From a virus, in the IMG/VR virus record IMGVR_UViG_3300045988_162215: a DNA stretch of 13,133 bases; one strand, given 5' to 3'. Below are positions 3,839-13,133 of this stretch, piece by piece. Within the stretch, counting starts at the first letter, position 1. Each line of letters starts with the position of its first letter. The notes under the pieces were generated by a model that saw only the letters and a list, made by a program, of their open reading frames with translations, made no database searches and was not told the DNA's origin. A program made the position numbers and the translations under genes.

Positions 3839-4563
3839 TACTGATATTTCTCCTTTAATAAATCTGTTTCATTAAGTTGATATAATGCAGTCAACTCATC
3901 TATCTCTCTTGTTATATCAACGGCAGACTCATCTGCTTGAATCTGTTTTAACATTTTGATACTTTTAGATACTGACTTTAATTGAATTTGTTTTTCAAGT
4001 TTCTTCTTGGTCTTAGAGAGTAAATCAAGTATCTGCTTTGTTTGATCATCTGGATTGGGTATATTTGACAATTCACAGATACTTTTTCTAATCTTTTCCA
4101 ATTTTCTCTCTAGTTTATTCGTATTAAGCTCTATAAAAACCATAATTAAATAGAACACAATAATTATTAAATAGCCGATATTTCTCACGTAATTACCAAA
4201 ATTCCATTGTGATTTTGCAAATTTAGTAAAATCATCATGTGTTTTAATATTAGCATCATATTTTTCATTATATTTTTCTACTAAATCGTTATATTTCTCA
4301 ATAGCATATCCAGCTGAATAATCTTTATCTGTAAAATTATCGCTTTTTAAATAAACAACTGCTGATGCACTCCAAAGAAGACAGTTTGTAAGAAAAATAG
4401 TAATAAGAATTGCTATAATTACATAATTAGCAGTATCGTCTATTTTTTTAAGCATTTTGTTTATAAGCTTAATTTTATTTTTACCTAAGACACATATTAT
4501 TATTATAGATAAAGAAAAAAACATAGCAATAGAACAAAAGCCATGTAAAGCATATATCGTCAT
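3838..4563 (-). CDS. membrane protein with 3-4 TM helices and C-terminal coiled-coil/charged tail (241 aa)
   Basis: RBS AAGGTGAG 5 nt before ATG 4563..4561 (the track start was a GTG inside the RBS). Function unknown. Confidence 0.7.
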   Translation of the reverse strand: MTIYALHGFCSIAMFFSLSIIIICVLGKNKIKLINKMLKKIDDTANYVIIAILITIFLTNCLLWSASAVVYLKSDNFTDKDYSAGYAIEKYNDLVEKYNEKYDANIKTHDDFTKFAKSQWNFGNYVRNIGYLIIIVFYLIMVFIELNTNKLERKLEKIRKSICELSNIPNPDDQTKQILDLLSKTKKKLEKQIQLKSVSKSIKMLKQIQADESAVDITREIDELTALYQLNETDLLKEKYQ

Positions 4564-5947: not shown

Positions 5948-5976
5948 TTGACAAACAAAAATAAGTTTGTTATAAT
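5948..5976 (+). promoter_or_regulatory. rightward consensus promoter TTGACA-17-TATAAT for plus-strand cluster
   Basis: TTGACA 5948-5953, spacer aacaaaaataagtttgt, TATAAT 5971-5976. About 95-nt leader to ATG 6076 with RBS GGAGGGAG. Confidence 0.7.
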
Positions 5977-8599: not shown

Positions 8600-8626
8600 T
8601 CCCTGTACACATTACATGTACAGGGA
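8600..8626 (-). terminator. intrinsic terminator TCCCTGTACA/TGTACAGGGA, then UUUUUU on minus strand
   Basis: 10-bp perfect stem downstream of the stop of 8640..9008. AAAAAA at 8594-8599 on the plus strand gives the U-run on the minus strand. Confidence 0.65.
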
Positions 8627-8639
8627 CTAACTACTTAGA

Positions 8640-9008
8640 CTAAAAGAACTTGAAAAGATTGAACAACTCCGCCATAGGATCTGACTCTGACTTCTTCTTT
8701 ACCTTAGGCTTAGGCTTACTCTCCGCTGTATCCATTGCCTGAATAAAAAGCTCGATAAACTTCAACTTATCAGTCATGTCCTTTGTAATCTCATTTGCGT
8801 CTTTCTCTGAAATTTCAGCTCCAGTAATAGCTTCCACATAATCCAACAAATCAGCAATCAGATATTTTCTTGCATCTTCTACCTCTGTAGGATCAATCTT
8901 TCTCTTATCCTTGGCTGCGGCAACCGCATCGGCTTCCGCCTGCGCCATCTTGCTAATCTCTTCAACTGACTTTCCTTCTGCAATAAGTTCTGCTATTGTT
9001 TTACTCAT
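8640..9008 (-). CDS. acidic protein with basic/hydrophobic C-terminal tail (122 aa)
   Basis: RBS AGAAGAGG upstream of ATG 9008. Its own promoter is at 9048-9076. Confidence 0.7.
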   Translation of the reverse strand: MSKTIAELIAEGKSVEEISKMAQAEADAVAAAKDKRKIDPTEVEDARKYLIADLLDYVEAITGAEISEKDANEITKDMTDKLKFIELFIQAMDTAESKPKPKVKKKSESDPMAELFNLFKFF

Positions 9009-9047
9009 AGTCTATAACCTCTTCTTTCTATTTCATTTTCTATATAT

Positions 9048-9076
9048 ATTATATAATAATTTTTCAGAAGTGTCAA
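9048..9076 (-). promoter_or_regulatory. consensus promoter TTGACA-17-TATAAT (minus strand)
   Basis: Reverse complement of tgtcaa 9071-9076 and attata 9048-9053, spacer 17. Confidence 0.65.
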
Positions 9077-9205
9077 AGGCACGAAAGCATATACCAGTAG
9101 TAAAATTGTAATTAGCTGTAACTATATCTTTTCTATTGTTGCGGGTATTTGTTCGTTTTTATATGAGAATAAGAAAAAACGAAGCTAATTTACCTCCCCT
9201 ATATA

Positions 9206-9234
9206 ATTATATCAAAAATACGAAAAAATGTCAA
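9206..9234 (-). promoter_or_regulatory. orphan promoter TTGACA-17-TATAAT followed by SD GGGGAGGT with no start codon or ORF downstream
   Basis: Minus strand reads TTGACAttttttcgtatttttgaTATAATtatataGGGGAGGTaaattagcttcg. The nearest in-frame start is a non-canonical ATT giving an 18-aa ORF. Confidence 0.5.
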
Positions 9235-9369
9235 GAAAGATGCGCTGAGGCATTTATCAATAGAATCACTGTAATTCGATACAGTAAGCCATTTTTTATT
9301 CTGACGGATATTTTTACGTTTCAGATAGAAAACGAGCAAATTTACAACAAAAGTAAGTCAAACATCTAA

Positions 9370-9469
9370 TTTCGGGATCCGTATGGCGGTTTTCAGATTT
9401 CAAACAACCAGGAAAAAAAGCCATATAGGGTCTGGTCGTGGGAACTCGGCGTTGCCCGGTGGTCAACGC
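9370..9469 (-). ncRNA. candidate small RNA transcribed leftward from promoter 9476-9504; begins with GC hairpin GGCGTTG/CAACGCC
   Basis: Consensus promoter with no ORF of at least 40 aa and an RBS downstream over 460 nt. The transcript 5' end folds into the 9448-9470 hairpin. The 3' end is undefined. Confidence 0.25.
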
Positions 9470-9475
9470 CGCGAC

Positions 9476-9504
9476 ATTATACCACATTTTATGTGCTTTG
9501 TCAA
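9476..9504 (-). promoter_or_regulatory. consensus promoter TTGACA-17-TATAAT (minus strand) driving an ORF-less transcript
   Basis: tgtcaa 9499-9504 and attata 9476-9481 on the plus strand. Confidence 0.6.
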
Positions 9505-9547
9505 GTAAAAAAATAAAAAAATAGAGGAAAATTCCTCATTTTTTAAG
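9505..9547 (-). terminator. intrinsic terminator: 10-11-bp stem GGAAAATTCCT/AGGAATTTTCC, then UAUUUUUUUAUUUUUUU
   Basis: Inverted repeat 9516-9526 / 9537-9547 downstream of the stop of 9568..9960. Long T-run on the minus strand. Confidence 0.6.
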
Positions 9548-9567
9548 GAATTTTCCCCTAAAAACCT

Positions 9568-9960
9568 TTATTTCTTAGGTTTTCTCTGTTCAATTAAATC
9601 GATTTTGAACTTGCGACCATTGATTTCTAAAGAAATCAGCTTATTTTCCTTAATAATCTCAACCTTTTCGCCATAAATACTTTGCAAATTAGTTAAAATA
9701 TTATGGAAAACTTCTTTTTTTTCATCAGAAATCTTAACTGTCCTAGGCTTTGAATCCTTGCGTTTTTCCTGGGTAATACCATGATCAACTCTCTGTCCTT
9801 TGGTTTTCTCTTCCAACTCGACAACCTCTTCCATTGTAAACCCTTCGGGACACTCTTCCAACTCTTCACAGGGTTTATCCCACATTTCATGGCAAAGCAT
9901 TTTACCATTCTTACAAATAAGATTTCCGCAATCTTCACACAACTTGATATTCATATTCAC
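9568..9960 (-). CDS. protein with N-terminal Cys-rich zinc-ribbon (CEDCGNLICKNGKMLCHEMWDKPC) and charged C-terminal region (130 aa)
   Basis: RBS GAAAGGGG upstream of ATG 9960. Promoter at 9986-10014. Confidence 0.7.
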   Translation of the reverse strand: MNMNIKLCEDCGNLICKNGKMLCHEMWDKPCEELEECPEGFTMEEVVELEEKTKGQRVDHGITQEKRKDSKPRTVKISDEKKEVFHNILTNLQSIYGEKVEIIKENKLISLEINGRKFKIDLIEQRKPKK

Positions 9961-9985
9961 AACCCCTTTCTTTTACTGTACCTAT

Positions 9986-10014
9986 ATTATAACACAAGAG
10001 GTTGAGAATGTCAA
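9986..10014 (-). promoter_or_regulatory. consensus promoter TTGACA-17-TATAAT (minus strand)
   Basis: tgtcaa 10009-10014 and attata 9986-9991, spacer 17. Confidence 0.65.
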
Positions 10015-10024
10015 CCTTTAATTT

Positions 10025-10056
10025 GCGGTTTTCGGTGGGAGAATCCCACCGACCGC
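10025..10056. other. GC-rich hairpin GCGG-tttt-TCGGTGGGA-gaa-TCCCACCGA-CCGC between two minus-strand genes
   Basis: 9-bp perfect stem plus outer GCGG/CCGC. A T-run follows only on the plus strand (CACATTGTTTTT). It carries the 3' flank motif CGC-CACATT shared with the other GC hairpins. Confidence 0.4.
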
Positions 10057-10068
10057 ACATTGTTTTTA

Positions 10069-10467
10069 CTAGCCCGCGATATCCTCAGTATTAAGGGCGA
10101 AGGTCATCTTCTTACCATCTGGAATACGGCGAACCTTGTAAACCATAGATGGAAGTCTGTTTTCTTCCTTTGCTGGACCGGCAAGCTGTGTCATAAGTGC
10201 GACAATCTTGTTAAGCGAATACTCGCCATTAAAGGCATTCATAATCTCTGTACAAGTCATAGGCTTTGAATCCTCGAGCAAGTCAAGAATCATATTCTTG
10301 ATTTCTGCGTTCTCGGTCTGATTCTTAGACGGCTTACGGTTTGCATTCTTCTTGTTAAGAATAGCAATCTCCTTACGGCAAAAGTCCTTGATATCCTCGG
10401 ATACGCCATCAATAGCCATAATCATCTCAAAATACTGCTTCTTTGTTGTCTTGTTTGTTGTTGTCAT
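10069..10467 (-). CDS. Lys/Thr-rich N-term plus C-terminal winged-helix-like domain (132 aa); fed by four tandem promoters
   Basis: RBS AAAAGGGGT upstream of ATG 10467. Segment CTEIMNAF...KIVALMTQL...VYKVRR resembles wHTH. Product unknown. Confidence 0.7.
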   Translation of the reverse strand: MTTTNKTTKKQYFEMIMAIDGVSEDIKDFCRKEIAILNKKNANRKPSKNQTENAEIKNMILDLLEDSKPMTCTEIMNAFNGEYSLNKIVALMTQLAGPAKEENRLPSMVYKVRRIPDGKKMTFALNTEDIAG

Positions 10468-10516
10468 AAAACATACCCCTTTTCTTAATAAATTCTTAAC
10501 TCTTTGTTACATATAC

Positions 10517-10545
10517 ATTATAACATATTTTGTAAGGTTTGTCAA
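10517..10545 (-). promoter_or_regulatory. promoter Pm1 TTGACA-17-TATAAT immediately upstream of gene 10069..10467
   Basis: tgtcaa 10540-10545, attata 10517-10522. Confidence 0.65.
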
Positions 10546-10608
10546 GCATTTTTTTTATTATTTTCTTTTCGGTTTAGAACCTTTAATCTTCCTTGACCTT
10601 ACATACTT

Positions 10609-10637
10609 ATTATAACATATTTTTTAATGTTTGTCAA
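10609..10637 (-). promoter_or_regulatory. promoter Pm2 TTGACA-17-TATAAT (part of 175-bp tandem duplication)
   Basis: tgtcaa 10632-10637, attata 10609-10614. About 50 bp identical to the Pm3 copy. Confidence 0.6.
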
Positions 10638-10783
10638 TAGGTTTTTTAAGATTTTTAAGAAATAACAATGATTTTAGGCGGATATGGAATAAGGCTCAAC
10701 CAAAATTGCCAACTCATTATCCCTTTTATTATTGGTTTTTTATTTCCTTTATCATTGTTTTCTTAACTTTATCTTACATACTT

Positions 10784-10812
10784 ATTATAACATATTTTTT
10801 AATGTTTGTCAA
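10784..10812 (-). promoter_or_regulatory. promoter Pm3, exact duplicate of Pm2
   Basis: cttacatacttattataacatattttttaatgtttgtcaataggttttt occurs at 10598-10646 and again at 10773-10821. Confidence 0.6.
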
Positions 10813-10893
10813 TAGGTTTTTGAAAGTTTCTAAAATTTGTTTTCCTCACGACCGAGGTTGCTATTTTGTTTTCTTTCCTTACCTTGTAAATAC

Positions 10894-10922
10894 ATTATAA
10901 CAAAATATTTATAGAAAATCAA
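10894..10922 (-). promoter_or_regulatory. weaker promoter Pm4 (TTGATT-17-TATAAT)
   Basis: attata 10894-10899. The -35 is rc of aatcaa at 10917-10922. Confidence 0.35.
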
Positions 10923-10927
10923 TATCG

Positions 10928-10980
10928 GAAAATTGCACAAAATTCGGGATGTACAAGGTTAAAAAATTTGTGCAATTTTC
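10928..10980. repeat. inverted repeat GAAAATTGCACAAA ...25 nt... TTTGTGCAATTTTC
   Basis: 14-bp perfect arms at 10928-10941 and 10967-10980. Abuts the -35 of the plus-strand promoter at 10984. Confidence 0.7.
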
Positions 10981-10983
10981 CTA

Positions 10984-11013
10984 TTGACAAATGCCAGAGC
11001 TATGTGGTATAAT
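10984..11013 (+). promoter_or_regulatory. plus-strand promoter TTGACA-18-TATAAT firing rightward into GC hairpin 11019-11041
   Basis: TTGACA 10984-10989, TATAAT 11008-11013. Confidence 0.55.
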
Positions 11014-11046
11014 AGTTCGGCGTGCAAGGGGCGTGCACGCCGCGCC

Positions 11047-11075
11047 ATTATAACACATAATGAATTATTTGTCAA
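11047..11075 (-). promoter_or_regulatory. minus-strand promoter TTGACA-17-TATAAT; its transcript begins with hairpin 11019-11041 and runs through IR 10928-10980
   Basis: tgtcaa 11070-11075, attata 11047-11052. Confidence 0.55.
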
Positions 11076-11092
11076 CCCCTAAATTAAAAAAA

Positions 11093-11119
11093 TGTGGGCG
11101 AGTTTAGGCTCGCCGCACA
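11093..11119. terminator. bidirectional intrinsic terminator (TGTGGGCGAG/CTCGCCGCACA) flanked by AAAAAAA upstream and TTTTCGATTTCC downstream
   Basis: A-run 11085-11092 gives a U-run for the minus-strand gene 11133..11360. The T-rich 11120-11131 serves the plus-strand sRNA candidate. Confidence 0.65.
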
Positions 11120-11132
11120 TTTTCGATTTCCA

Positions 11133-11360
11133 CTAATCTTCAATGATTAACTTCGCTTTAAGTTTACGAATAGGTCTTTCTGAAAAATCACAAATAACTC
11201 CTTCTATAGCTCCGCTGTCAAGGTCAACAATATATGTATCATAATTATCAGCACATAACATACAAGGTTTATTATCATCTAAAAATGTAAAAACTTCACC
11301 ATTATCTAAATCTTCGCAACTTAAATATCCCTTAACTTCAATCTTTCCAATAATTTCCAT
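11133..11360 (-). CDS. hypothetical acidic Cys-containing protein (75 aa)
   Basis: RBS AAAGGTGA 5 nt before ATG 11360..11358 (the track start was an upstream GTG). Promoter at 11404-11432. Confidence 0.6.
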   Translation of the reverse strand: MEIIGKIEVKGYLSCEDLDNGEVFTFLDDNKPCMLCADNYDTYIVDLDSGAIEGVICDFSERPIRKLKAKLIIED

Positions 11361-11403
11361 TTTAATCACCTTTTTAACCTTTCTTTCTCTTGTTTATATA
11401 CTT

Positions 11404-11432
11404 ATTATACTATATTTATTATTATTTGTCAA
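11404..11432 (-). promoter_or_regulatory. consensus promoter TTGACA-17-TATAAT
   Basis: tgtcaa 11427-11432, attata 11404-11409. Confidence 0.65.
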
Positions 11433-11446
11433 GTATTTTTAGAAAA

Positions 11447-11466
11447 ATAGGCATTTCTGCCTATTC
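11447..11466 (-). terminator. terminator hairpin AATAGGCA-tttc-TGCCTATT, then UUUUCU on minus strand
   Basis: Overlaps the stop of 11461..11751. Directly upstream of the next promoter. Confidence 0.5.
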
Positions 11467-11751
11467 TTCAGAGATATTTGCGAAGGGCATCTTCGGACAA
11501 GGATAATCGTCAACCACTGATGAGCCACCATAAGTGGTTCGTACCATTGACACTCTCCACGCCACATCCGCAAGTCTATCAATACAACTTGGATAACTAC
11601 TCGTACACCAAATTTCTCCATTCTTACGAAAAATATCCTGATATGTGCCTTTAATTGTAGTTAAAAGACTAATCACATCTTCGATTTTCTGTTCCTCTTC
11701 TGGTGTCAAAGTAATTGTTTCAATACGTTTCTCGCCTGTAATAATTTCCAT
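11461..11751 (-). CDS. hypothetical protein (96 aa)
   Basis: RBS AGAGAGGT 7 nt before ATG 11751. Promoter at 11783-11811. Confidence 0.65.
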   Translation of the reverse strand: MEIITGEKRIETITLTPEEEQKIEDVISLLTTIKGTYQDIFRKNGEIWCTSSYPSCIDRLADVAWRVSMVRTTYGGSSVVDDYPCPKMPFANISEE

Positions 11752-11782
11752 ATAATTTACCTCTCTTTCACTTTCTATAATT

Positions 11783-11811
11783 ATTATATCATTATTATTT
11801 TAATTTGTCAA
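11783..11811 (-). promoter_or_regulatory. consensus promoter TTGACA-17-TATAAT (lies inside the 3' end of gene 11795..11998)
   Basis: tgtcaa 11806-11811, attata 11783-11788. Confidence 0.6.
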
Positions 11812-11998
11812 CATTTAATTCATAAATATTGTAATAAATTTTTGTTATCCAAGTATTTCTTATTATTCGCCAACATTTCCAAATAGGTCTTTGCCAACTT
11901 TTAAGATTAAAGCCTAAAATAAACAATGCCTTAAAATTTTTCCATGATTTTTCTTTAAGCCAATTATCTATTACTAAATACTGTGTTTTTGTTATCAT
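11795..11998 (-). CDS. Trp-rich basic small protein (67 aa)
   Basis: RBS AGAGAGGT 7 nt before ATG 11998. Promoter at 12024-12052. The 3' end overlaps the downstream promoter. Confidence 0.5.
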   Translation of the reverse strand: MITKTQYLVIDNWLKEKSWKNFKALFILGFNLKSWQRPIWKCWRIIRNTWITKIYYNIYELNVDKLK

Positions 11999-12023
11999 TC
12001 TTATTACCTCTCTTTCTACAATT

Positions 12024-12052
12024 ATTATATCACAGCTGGCTTACTTTGTCAA
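12024..12052 (-). promoter_or_regulatory. consensus promoter TTGACA-17-TATAAT
   Basis: tgtcaa 12047-12052, attata 12024-12029. Confidence 0.6.
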
Positions 12053-12205
12053 GCACTTTTTTATTGCGTATTCAACTGGCGAAACTGGATAAACACAAAC
12101 AACTAATTCTTGAAGCAATTGTGACGCTTGTTTTTTATTTCTAATAGCCTTTTTACTTTTTATATATTGAAAACCATTAGCAGTTTTTATTTTATAATAT
12201 TTCAT
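12041..12205 (-). CDS. small basic protein (54 aa, MKYYKIKTANGFQYIKSKKAIRNKKQ...), not in ORF track
   Basis: RBS AGTGAGGT 9 nt before ATG 12205..12203. Its own TTGACA-17-TATAAT promoter is at 12233-12261. The stop overlaps the downstream -35. Confidence 0.45.
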   Translation of the reverse strand: MKYYKIKTANGFQYIKSKKAIRNKKQASQLLQELVVCVYPVSPVEYAIKKCLTK

Positions 12206-12232
12206 TTCTTATCAACCTCACTTTCTATACCT

Positions 12233-12261
12233 ATTATACCACCGCTGACCTACTCTGTCAA
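12233..12261 (-). promoter_or_regulatory. consensus promoter TTGACA-17-TATAAT
   Basis: tgtcaa 12256-12261, attata 12233-12238. Confidence 0.6.
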
Positions 12262-12708
12262 AAGTAAATCAGCTAAAAAATCAATAATATTTTCTGCGGT
12301 CGGATCGACTGTTTCTCCCAAACTCCAACCCTTGCGAACCTTTGCGTTATCATCAAAAAGAATCTGATTTCCGCCATGCTTGCGTGTGCAGTTTGCTTTT
12401 GTTGTGCCATACTTCACAAGATGGATTTCATCAAAAGGGAAATCATATCGAGCAAGCCAATCTCTTTTTGCAGTTCTCACAACCTCGTCGAAGTCTTTTG
12501 TGGAATCTTTAGACAACCAAGATGTGACAACGATTCTATAACCGACACTCTTCAAACAACAGAGAAGAGAACCAAGCAAAGCCATATCCCAAAGTGGCTC
12601 AGCCATAATGTAAGGGCGCGGGTTCTCGTTGTGTAAATCCTCAAGCCAGCCCTCTACTCCATAGAAATTTGCGATTGTTCCATCCATGTCAAATACTAAT
12701 GTTTTCAT
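12250..12708 (-). CDS. HAD-superfamily 5'(3')-deoxyribonucleotidase (NT5C-like), 152 aa
   Basis: N-terminal motif I FDMDGT (DxDGT), motif II VVTSW, motif IV ILFDDN. Size and layout typical of phage NT5C-type nucleotidases. RBS AAGAGGT 7 nt before ATG 12708. Confidence 0.8.
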   Translation of the reverse strand: MKTLVFDMDGTIANFYGVEGWLEDLHNENPRPYIMAEPLWDMALLGSLLCCLKSVGYRIVVTSWLSKDSTKDFDEVVRTAKRDWLARYDFPFDEIHLVKYGTTKANCTRKHGGNQILFDDNAKVRKGWSLGETVDPTAENIIDFLADLLLTE

Positions 12709-12738
12709 ATTTTTTACCTCTTTCCTTATCTTTTCTTT

Positions 12739-12767
12739 ATTATAGCATGTTATTTGTTATTTGTCAA
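12739..12767 (-). promoter_or_regulatory. consensus promoter TTGACA-17-TATAAT
   Basis: tgtcaa 12762-12767, attata 12739-12744. Confidence 0.6.
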
Positions 12768-12774
12768 CTACTTT

Positions 12775-12909
12775 TTACCAGATAGTAATAGATTGTTTAG
12801 AATCATCATACTCCACAGCAGGCTCGCAAAAGTTGCCTTCGCTTTCTATATAGACTTCTGTATCTGATGGATATTCTTGTAATATTTCAATTAAATCTTC
12901 AACTGTCAT
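12775..12909 (-). CDS. small acidic protein (44 aa, MTVEDLIEILQEYPSDTEVYIESEGNFCEPAVEYDDSKQSITIW), not in ORF track
   Basis: RBS AGAGAGGT 7 nt before ATG 12909..12907. Promoter at 12945-12973. Confidence 0.45.
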   Translation of the reverse strand: MTVEDLIEILQEYPSDTEVYIESEGNFCEPAVEYDDSKQSITIW

Positions 12910-12944
12910 ATTTTTTACCTCTCTTTCCTTTACCTTATATACAC

Positions 12945-12973
12945 ATTATACATGATAGATTTTAATTTGTCAA
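12945..12973 (-). promoter_or_regulatory. consensus promoter TTGACA-17-TATAAT
   Basis: tgtcaa 12968-12973, attata 12945-12950. Confidence 0.6.
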
Positions 12974-13017
12974 GCATTTTGGGATAAAAAAATAAAAAAA
13001 TTTTTTCAAAAAAACTC

Positions 13018-13046
13018 TTGACAAAAAGCCGGGACTATGATATACT
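13018..13046 (+). promoter_or_regulatory. plus-strand promoter TTGACA-17-TATACT firing into GC hairpin 13054-13080
   Basis: Homologous in position and sequence to the 10984-11013 promoter (shared ...TATAmTrGAAGTTCGGCG). Confidence 0.5.
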
Positions 13047-13053
13047 GGAAGTT

Positions 13054-13080
13054 CGGCGCGCTGCGATCCATGGCGCGCCG
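13054..13080. repeat. GC hairpin CGGCGCGC-tgcgatccatg-GCGCGCCG (homolog of hairpin 11019-11041 with a different stem sequence)
   Basis: 8-bp perfect stem. Flanked by TTCGGCG on the 5' side and CGCCAATTATAACAC on the 3' side, as at 11019-11041. Confidence 0.75.
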
Positions 13081-13083
13081 CCA

Positions 13084-13112
13084 ATTATAACACAAAAATC
13101 AATTTTTGTCAA
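13084..13112 (-). promoter_or_regulatory. minus-strand promoter TTGACA-17-TATAAT convergent with 13018-13046
   Basis: tgtcaa 13107-13112, attata 13084-13089. Its transcript starts in the GC hairpin. Confidence 0.55.
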
Positions 13113-13133
13113 GCACTTTTTTCAAAAAAAAAT

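Follow-up and report, generated by a model that had tools for sequence, protein, structure and literature searches.

Why should some 560 bp of viral DNA without a recognisable gene contain three perfect promoters, a stable hairpin and a ribosome-binding signal that leads to no start codon? The question is raised by positions 9009-9567 of the IMG/VR virus record IMGVR_UViG_3300045988_162215, a stretch of 13,133 nucleotides (nt) that was analysed as a whole and is called the window here. The interval is flanked by two minus-strand genes, 8640-9008 and 9568-9960. It is read here, with a probability of about one half, as an untranslated control region of the early gene 8640-9008, with three promoters named P1, P2 and P3. 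Its upstream part, which runs from P1 through a hairpin to a TCCCGAA motif, is one copy (copy C) of an undescribed module that is spread through uncultured gut phages.

The source is a 143-kb phAss-1-like large gut phage. The window matches part of a 143,455-bp human-gut contig (L165; compared loci are cited by their L numbers) at 100% identity, and a protein search found its HAD-type nucleotidase to be 54% identical to a protein of phage phAss-1. A search for near-identical DNA among GenBank phages gave no match to the window. phAss-1 is a 136-kb uncultured gut phage from a clade which recodes TAG and has Clostridia as predicted hosts (PMC10607447). The host of the phage described here is probably a member of the Clostridia.

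A module of promoter, hairpin and TCCC(G/A)AA

The module has three parts: a consensus promoter, then, at the predicted start site, a hairpin of the form CGG…CCG, and 68-71 nt after it the heptamer TCCC(G/A)AA. Three copies (A, B and C) are present in the window and five in the source genome, where they are 1.6-2.3 kb apart. The hairpin pattern is matched three times in the window against 0.01 expected. Paralogous copies have only the hairpin and the TCCC(G/A)AA motif in common.

When IMG/VR was scanned for a promoter followed by GGCG-N14-19-CGCCG, 30 viral loci were recovered, mostly on large phage contigs (18-197 kb). TCCC(G/A)AA lies 97-102 nt after the -10 hexamer in each of these. A pattern search without the promoter found extra copies in the same loci, and most of them have a perfect or near-perfect promoter. 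Across 42 modules the hairpin base is 2-5 nt past the -10 hexamer, and the distance from the 3′ base of the hairpin to TCCC(G/A)AA is 68-71 nt in 41. The intervening linker of about 70 nt cannot be aligned between lineages. After two redundancy filters, the number of distinct modules is 37 and 34, respectively. A further element of copy C, the type-C motif ATATG-N3-TTTTTT-N6-TGTTTG, recurs in several lineages (window/L001/L002, L059, L018/L028/L080 and L010), with near-variants in L156 and L039.

The modules are always co-oriented with the early genes. Around 93 module instances, the neighbouring perfect promoters number 607 on the same strand and 14 on the opposite strand. A terminator is found no more than 100 nt upstream of 23/34 non-redundant modules, compared with 28/400 random windows (7%). 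Since a terminator usually precedes them, the modules appear to open fresh transcripts, with the hairpin at the fresh 5′ end. In many lineages a second promoter, a Shine-Dalgarno (SD) sequence and a gene follow directly on the module, and in several the second promoter overlaps TCCCGAA and leads into the SD and gene.

The hairpin of copy C begins 4 nt past the -10 hexamer of P1, and the predicted P1 transcript therefore starts inside the stem or at its foot. The first 76 nt of this predicted transcript fold at -26.7 kcal/mol (z = -3.3). Across distant copies, CGG…CCG is the only invariant part of the stem, and the outer pairs switch on both sides: CGGCG/CGCCG, CGGAC/GUCCG, CGGGC/GCCCG, CGGUC/GACCG and CGGAG/CUCCG. 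The unbiased measure of covariation is taken from pairs 6-8, which the search pattern left free. In these, 80/93 cells are Watson-Crick and 87/93 are Watson-Crick or G·U, and at least nine different complementary triplets occur. A formal covariation count found double changes at 6/9 pairs, a level reached in 0/500 shuffles and lost when the partners are slid, although this count is inflated because the filter applied had itself required at least 7/8 pairs.

The strand on which the helix folds can be judged from its wobble pairs. Within the helix, G·U exceeds A·C by 6 to 1 in the sense orientation (seven events). Two module remnants in the source genome (L165, about 1600-1670 and 2560-2700) have no sense promoter, and each keeps a perfect antisense promoter; where their stems mismatch, the sense strand has A·C and the antisense strand has G·U. 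As the wobbles fit whichever strand is transcribed, the hairpin seems to act in the RNA that starts next to it, and this points to a fold at the RNA level, at the 5′ end of the adjoining transcript. Analysis by RNAalifold gave no second conserved helix, either among the type-C lineages or in 34 anchored modules, and returned the 5′ hairpin only. A stem that encloses the type-C motif is found in the window, L156 and L010, and is missing from L018 and L059.

A consensus promoter on the opposite strand faces copies A, B, D and E and the copy of phAss-1, which places the hairpin between convergent start sites. Unlike copies A and B, copy C has no antisense consensus promoter. The convergent start sites of modules A and B are about 35-40 nt apart, and the antisense RNA of module B would extend about 100 nt, to the reverse side of a terminator at 11097-11114.

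The surroundings of the heptamer differ between copies. In most, including module B, it is flanked by the inverted repeat TTGCACAA/TTGTGCAA. Module E, which lies outside the window (L165 5216-5262), has three perfect DnaA boxes (TTATCCACA), and 20 kb of sequence contain no others. Together the boxes make an inverted repeat about ATCCCGAA, shortly upstream of the next promoter, and a gap of 3 bp separates two of them. At the same module position in L016 (about 4180-4230) there are two Cheo/LexA-type boxes (CGAAC-N4-GTTCG), CGAACAGTTGTTCG and CGAACAGCTGTTCA. Copy C has no DnaA, LexA or TTGYRCAA sites, and no paired DnaA boxes (TTATNCACA) are present in 9009-9567.

Two identities for the heptamer itself were rejected. 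A Spo0A box (TGNCGAA) was discounted because its G is absent in all 34 variants. As part of a sigma-A promoter, TCCCGAA would be followed by TAnnnT, which occurs 3-8 nt later in just 13/34 modules (background 13%).

The module does not correspond to a known RNA family. Rfam 15 covariance models gave no hit at the gathering score across the whole window, nothing convincing at E ≤ 10 in 8900-9700 and none at E ≤ 1 in 9000-13133. ARAGORN found 0 transfer RNA (tRNA) or transfer-messenger RNA genes in the window, and neither of the two Rfam ranges has a tRNA match. The spacing of the elements is suggestive of a small CRISPR array or of a decayed tRNA, but there is no similarity between repeats and no tRNA signal. 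The variable stems among paralogues also speak against a mimic of a CRISPR repeat (an anti-CRISPR RNA). A tandem periodicity of 72 nt is not above that of shuffles, and Tandem Repeats Finder found nothing.

Layout, conservation and coding potential of the interval

The features of the interval and the other two modules of the window are listed in the table, together with the nucleotide identity of each segment to its relatives L001 and L002.

Table. Elements of the interval 9009-9567, its flanking genes and modules A and B in window coordinates, with segment identities between the window and L001 and L002
Feature	Position	Strand	Description	Identity to L001 and L002
Flanking genes	8640-9008 and 9568-9960	minus		85-94% nucleotide; proteins 78-95%
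122-amino-acid (aa) acidic early protein	8640-9008	minus	terminator is the palindrome near 8600-8628	
Intrinsic terminator of upstream gene 9568-9960	9522-9560	minus	17-bp stem, then T-run	
P1	9476-9504	minus	TTGACA-17-TATAAT, 12/12 match, extended TG (TGGTATAAT)	100% (29/29)
Promoter-proximal hairpin	9447-9471	minus	CGGCGTTG-ACCACCGGG-CAACGCCG, 8-bp stem	
Type-C motif	9401-9426	minus	ATATG-N3-TTTTTT-N6-TGTTTG	
TCCCGAA	9371-9377	minus	69 nt past hairpin 3′ base; second invariant module element	
Hairpin to TCCCGAA	9371-9475		105 nt	99-100%
Segment 9235-9370	9235-9370			97-98.5%
Palindrome	9268-9285		ACTGTATCGAATTACAGT (CTGT-N8-ACAG), about 35 nt upstream of P2	
P2	9206-9234	minus	TTGACA-17-TATAAT, 12/12 match, extended TG	100%
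Start-less SD	9192-9199	minus	GGGGAGGT, predicted 5′ end of P2 transcript	
Orphan leader	9077-9205			93-96%
P3	9048-9076	minus	TTGACA-17-TATAAT, 12/12 match	
P3 and leader				98.5-100%
Module B	10943-11075	minus	P1 11075-11047, hairpin 11018-11042, ATCCCGAA 10943-10950	
Module B facing promoter	10984-11013	plus	perfect	
Module A	12978-13112	minus	P1 13112-13084, hairpin 13054-13080, ATCCCAAA 12978-12985	
Module A facing promoter	13018-13046	plus	11/12 matches	

The terminator of the upstream gene is the top-ranked terminator-like site in the window, and a T-rich stretch (9505-9521) leads from it into P1. No terminator-like site was found on the minus strand between 9476 and 9009. Downstream of P2, no ATG, GTG or TTG occurs in the 40 nt after GGGGAGGT. 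P3 is followed by a true ribosome-binding site (RBS), AAGAGGT (9023-9017), and by an ATG at 9008. The preliminary description of this DNA, made from the letters alone, had named P1 and P2 as two of three consensus promoters in the interval, a GGCGTTG/CAACGCC hairpin at the head of the first transcript and a strong SD with no start codon in range after the second. Each of these features is confirmed, and the third promoter is P3.

The promoters of the interval are far above chance, yet they are not peculiar to it. The early arm of the source genome (L165 868-13661), of the 'host-takeover' type, is 13 kb long and has about 45 small co-directional genes and 34 perfect TTGACA-17-TATAAT promoters; three consensus promoters per 560 bp are therefore the local norm. 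Fifteen perfect promoters lie in 4 kb of the window (minus strand, 9048-13112).

The palindrome upstream of P2 looks like an operator and is regarded as a candidate for one. CTGT-N8-ACAG has a single match in the window against 0.07 expected, and it is kept in all close relatives though its flanks vary. The core (9269-9284) is shaped like a proteobacterial SOS box, in a phage whose host is presumed to be a Firmicute.

The interval is the best-conserved part of its locus, above the flanking genes. The identities to L001 and L002 are matched by two further copies from metagenomes. It is present in five genomes (the window, L001, L002, L154 and L155). In L154 and L155 the hexamers of P1 are intact and the spacers differ. 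All five genomes have a perfect P2 and 4/5 retain GGAGG, with the SD octamer reading GGGGAGGC in L001 and L154, GGGGAAGT in L002 and GGGGAGGT in L155. Homologues of the upstream gene at 47-54% identity have the module next to them in L156, L158, L159 and L162, and in L163 one extra gene stands between the homologue and the module. The module of L156 is of type C with a different stem. In the L160/L161 lineage, an ordinary gene comes after the terminator.

It had also been stated that the interval contains no open reading frame (ORF) of 60 aa or more. This is not literally correct, as the plus strand has a 77-aa ORF that starts with TTG (9136-9369). In substance the interval is gene-free. Neither this ORF nor one of 57 aa on the minus strand (9487-9314) has an RBS, and the start of the latter falls inside the P1 spacer. 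The 77-aa ORF was rejected as a gene since stops interrupt it in 3/4 close relatives (L001, L154 and L155). No RBS-bearing ORF is found in the interval under codes 11, 15 or 4. Readthrough of TAG or TGA, a relevant check as the phage clade recodes TAG, does not reveal a hidden gene.

A 36-aa reading ('MAFFPGCLKS…') was also discarded, as it has no RBS and its length and sequence diverge fully after codon 8. The type-C motif, which this frame would translate as 'MAFFxxCL', is a nucleotide motif and not a coding one, because its conserved codons (TTT TTT, TGT TTG) never vary synonymously across lineages. A small hydrophobic RBS-bearing ORF with an antisense RNA, the combination that defines a type I toxin-antitoxin system, is absent from the interval.

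Function of the interval and alternative explanations

As no terminator lies between P1, P2, P3 and gene 8640-9008, the interval can be regarded as a nested-leader region that would give nested transcripts of one gene. The host sigma-A polymerase would fire from all three promoters in the same direction, and the leaders would be about 460, 190 and 40 nt in length. The P1 RNA is predicted to begin with the G+C stem-loop at its very 5′ end, which could shield it from 5′-end-dependent decay. The P2 RNA would begin with an SD that binds ribosomes without following translation and may act as a 5′ protector. TCCCGAA, at its fixed 70 nt, could serve as a landing site for factors that bind DNA or RNA and control either read-through or the next promoter; in other copies its surroundings consist of inverted repeats, DnaA boxes or LexA boxes. 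In Bacillus it is established that RNA is stabilised when its 5′ end is blocked or when it carries a strong SD, whether or not a start codon follows (PMC3997798). With such stabiliser designs, both oddities of the interval, the 5′ hairpin and the start-less SD, would be explained by known biology.

The preliminary description had offered a regulatory leader, a non-coding RNA gene and a decayed gene start as possible explanations. The first is supported, as the module runs into a second promoter and a gene in many relatives. What stands of the second is a conserved non-coding element; a free-standing small RNA (sRNA) is not upheld, since no terminator follows. With a promoter and a gene following instead, the hairpin element is better described as a leader or control module than as an sRNA gene. 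The third does not apply to the interval as a whole, and it is retained as a possible origin of the P2 cassette, whose leader is drifting at a gene-like 93-96%. This cassette may be what is left of a lost gene cassette, may act as a 5′ stabiliser of the SD type, or both. The stabiliser fits as well as decay because, among the five genomes, P2 is always perfect and GGAGG is retained in four.

Several observations weigh against a control region built on 5′ stabilisers. A 5′ stabiliser leaves the invariant TCCC(G/A)AA and its 70±1-nt spacing unexplained, and the DnaA boxes of module E and LexA-type boxes of L016 point to a DNA-level role of the distal half. The count of G·U versus A·C is small, at seven events. 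Variation is seen in the SD-like octamer of P2, and the L002 version is the weaker GGAAG. In L158 the hairpin has no sense promoter and comes directly after a stop codon. P1 is also missing from both remnants of the source genome, so a module can be present where no transcript is started from it.

A broader proposal is possible and is put forward tentatively. The module may be a new class of phage cis-acting element, in which a start-site RNA hairpin works with a site 70 nt downstream. The early arm would employ it at five places, in each case just after a terminator, and different copies would be wired to host DnaA, LexA or an unknown TTGCACAA-binding protein. Such an element could reload a polymerase that resists terminators (processive antitermination), or make early transcription or DNA entry dependent on the state of the host.

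The alternative that survives best is a role mainly at the DNA level, although it is considered unlikely. The module would then be a repeated nucleoprotein or recombination cassette, similar to the promoter early stem-loop elements (PeSLs) of T4-type phages, or a DnaA-box repeat region like those of T5, and would serve in entry control, as an origin-like site or as a roadblock. A fixed spacing with an intervening sequence that is unalignable between lineages would suit this, as would lineage-specific inverted repeats at one position (the DnaA boxes of module E and the CGAAC-N4-GTTCG boxes of L016) and the persistence of the module without a sense promoter. Two DnaA boxes 3 bp apart, as in module E, are a pairing known from T5 (bioRxiv 10.1101/866236). 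As in T5, the non-coding DNA is better conserved than the ORFs, and a dmp-like 5′-nucleotidase is encoded in the same arm. The early arm is also mosaic between relatives, with promoter-only remnants left behind, as with PeSLs (PMC2839356). However, compensatory changes in the stem favour a folded nucleic acid over a sequence-specific duplex site. The G·U wobbles track the transcribed strand, the orientation is strictly co-directional with transcription, and copy C itself is without DnaA, LexA or TTGYRCAA sites.

A free-standing trans-acting sRNA of about 100-130 nt is a still less likely explanation. Its 5′ hairpin would give protection and its single-stranded UCCC(G/A)AA would be an anti-SD-like seed. 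C-rich seeds are a feature of the Firmicute sRNAs RsaE/RoxS, LhrC and RNAIII, and the consensus promoter, the covarying 5′ hairpin, the invariant C-rich heptamer and the multiple paralogues alike in hairpin and motif alone would all be expected of such a family. The UCCC is predicted to be unpaired, with a mean of 0.75 against 0.53 for the linker, and lies above the linker in 31/37 modules. This is weak evidence, however, as C exceeds G in the linker of 28/34 modules, and C residues among many A/U and few G are predicted to be unpaired regardless. A seed would not need a fixed distance of 70 nt, and no complementary TTYGGGA is found near any phage start codon, for which reason the anti-SD seed was rejected. 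In addition, no intrinsic terminator follows the motif in copies C or A, a promoter, SD and gene come within 10-60 nt in many lineages, and there is no Rfam match at E ≤ 1.

Decay of one or two early genes is very improbable as the source of the entire interval: the P2 SD is in the style of real cassettes (GAGGTAAATTA, as at 11770) with the start codon absent, other members of the family have comparable cassettes that are truncated or lack a start (L007, L001-D) and the leader 9077-9205 evolves at gene-like rates, but the rest of the interval is more constrained than the genes, the module is a family with its own signature that distant relatives keep after the same gene, and no intact ORF replaces it even where the neighbouring protein is at 47-54% identity. 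An intact protein gene at this place in related genomes had been named in advance as the finding that would make the interval a pseudogene. There is no syntenic relative with an intact gene in place of the P2 cassette, and neither the 168 loci compared nor the metagenome relatives yielded an intact homologue of the orphan cassette; the pseudogene reading thus fails for the module. Among the compared loci, sequence like the orphan leader is found solely in the close genomes that carry the same interval.

The early arm and comparison with known systems

The density of consensus host-type promoters in the early arm is extreme. Nearly all of these promoters have an extended TG, and most lie 25-35 nt 5′ of a strong SD and a small ORF. 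In the region 10517-10922 (minus strand), four promoters stand in a row (10922, 10812, 10637 and 10545), and no credible ORF separates them. Two of these, 10812 and 10637, form direct repeats of about 50 nt, and SD-like runs that lack a start codon come after several promoters of the region. The source genome was also assembled independently (L168), and that assembly breaks within this region. A back-to-back promoter pair, 5921-5893 on the minus strand (11/12 matches) and 5948-5976 on the plus strand (perfect), sits at the GC-skew switch between the leftward and rightward gene blocks.

Protein searches gave no family for the 122-aa protein (8640-9008) downstream of the interval. A 132-aa early protein encoded at 10069-10467 is winged-helix-like. 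The HAD-family protein of the early arm (12250-12708, minus strand, 152 aa) matches phage 5′-3′ deoxyribonucleotidase families (phrog_2643) and is reminiscent of dmp, which T5 carries in its pre-early region. At 1454-2062 on the minus strand, amid otherwise unassignable ORFs, lies the gene of a protein with a SprT-like metalloprotease domain (PF10263, E = 6e-14). A Thg1-like gene adjoins the early arm in the source genome.

The large uncultured gut phages of Clostridia are known almost solely as lists of ORFs, and their regulatory DNA is uncharted. The module gives a compact signature, in which a consensus promoter and a CGG…CCG hairpin are followed at 70 nt by TCCCRAA, and this signature lends itself to searching, cloning and mutation. 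In dozens of related phages it stands where blocks of early transcription begin, and its conservation exceeds that of their genes. It therefore offers a handle on the organisation of host takeover, with some copies linked to host DnaA and LexA, and may provide strong, portable promoter and leader parts for Firmicutes. If the 70-nt geometry does reflect a new RNA-polymerase or RNA-protein mechanism, it would be of general interest.

Among known systems, the put sites of HK022 and the nut sites of lambda are similar in that structured RNA lies just past early promoters, in several copies, at the head of units that hold terminators. put requires two conserved stem-loops and nut requires boxA next to boxB. 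The module has one conserved helix and a linear motif 70 nt away, and so differs from both.

Leaders of the same design are found in probable host genomes. On contigs of Clostridia metagenome-assembled genomes (L043, L045, L048, L062 and L098), tRNA genes are preceded by a perfect TTGACA-17-TATAAT promoter and a G+C start-site hairpin. The hairpin ends 10-14 nt 5′ of the tRNA in four cases and abuts it in L048. The difference is that a tRNA follows in the host, whereas no tRNA-like sequence follows in the phage. Other host matches were set aside: the 'leader hairpin' of ribonuclease P belongs to the ribonuclease P RNA itself, and in the matches to the L10 leader and the thiamine pyrophosphate (TPP) riboswitch the 'hairpin' is the 5′ part of those RNAs.

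The 5′ stabilisers of Gram-positive bacteria and their phages include the aprE-type stem-loop, the cryIIIA STAB-SD and the polypurine stabiliser of SP82 early RNA. A STAB-SD is complementary to the 3′ end of 16S ribosomal RNA, and its stabilising effect depends on binding of the 30S subunit. As in these, a long untranslated RNA would follow, in a phage of a Firmicute host. A stable stem-loop lies at the predicted first nucleotides of the P1 RNA, as in the aprE type, and the P2 RNA is predicted to carry the strong SD-like GGGGAGGU at its 5′ end, where a start codon at translation distance is lacking, as in STAB-SD. On this likeness, the P1 hairpin and the P2 SD may both act as RNA stabilisers. 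Unlike the known stabilisers, the hairpin comes as part of a more extended module, in which an invariant motif stands at a fixed 70 nt, and this module can occur without a promoter of its own.

For conserved non-coding blocks with paired DnaA boxes, the closest precedent is the untranslated repeat or injection stop signal regions of T5-like phages, which lie in the DNA that is injected first, are conserved, rich in inverted repeats and contain DnaA boxes paired 3 bp apart (bioRxiv 10.1101/866236). Both are non-coding blocks in the early end of the genome that are better conserved than the ORFs, with a dmp-like nucleotidase nearby. There is no sequence similarity between them, DnaA boxes are confined to module E, and the modules are tied to a promoter and a hairpin. 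The source phage is not known to inject its DNA in two steps.

For repeated promoter cassettes and start-less remnants, the closest precedent is the PeSLs of T4-type phages. These combine near-consensus sigma-70-type early promoters with stem-loop terminators between small ORFans, are distributed as a mosaic, and allow cassette recombination to delete or insert genes (PMC2839356). The cassettes of a PeSL system are near-identical repeats, and their recombination gives mini-circles and deletions with the crossover between -10 and ATG. The order of a terminator (9560-9522) and then P1 is that of a PeSL, namely a promoter with an upstream terminator. In the source phage, near-identity beyond the hexamers is confined to some cassettes (e.g. 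10812 and 10637), and its relatives differ by gains and losses of whole cassettes. The stem-loop of a PeSL is the upstream terminator, whereas the module has a second, covarying hairpin downstream of the promoter, followed by TCCCGAA, and its host is Gram-positive.

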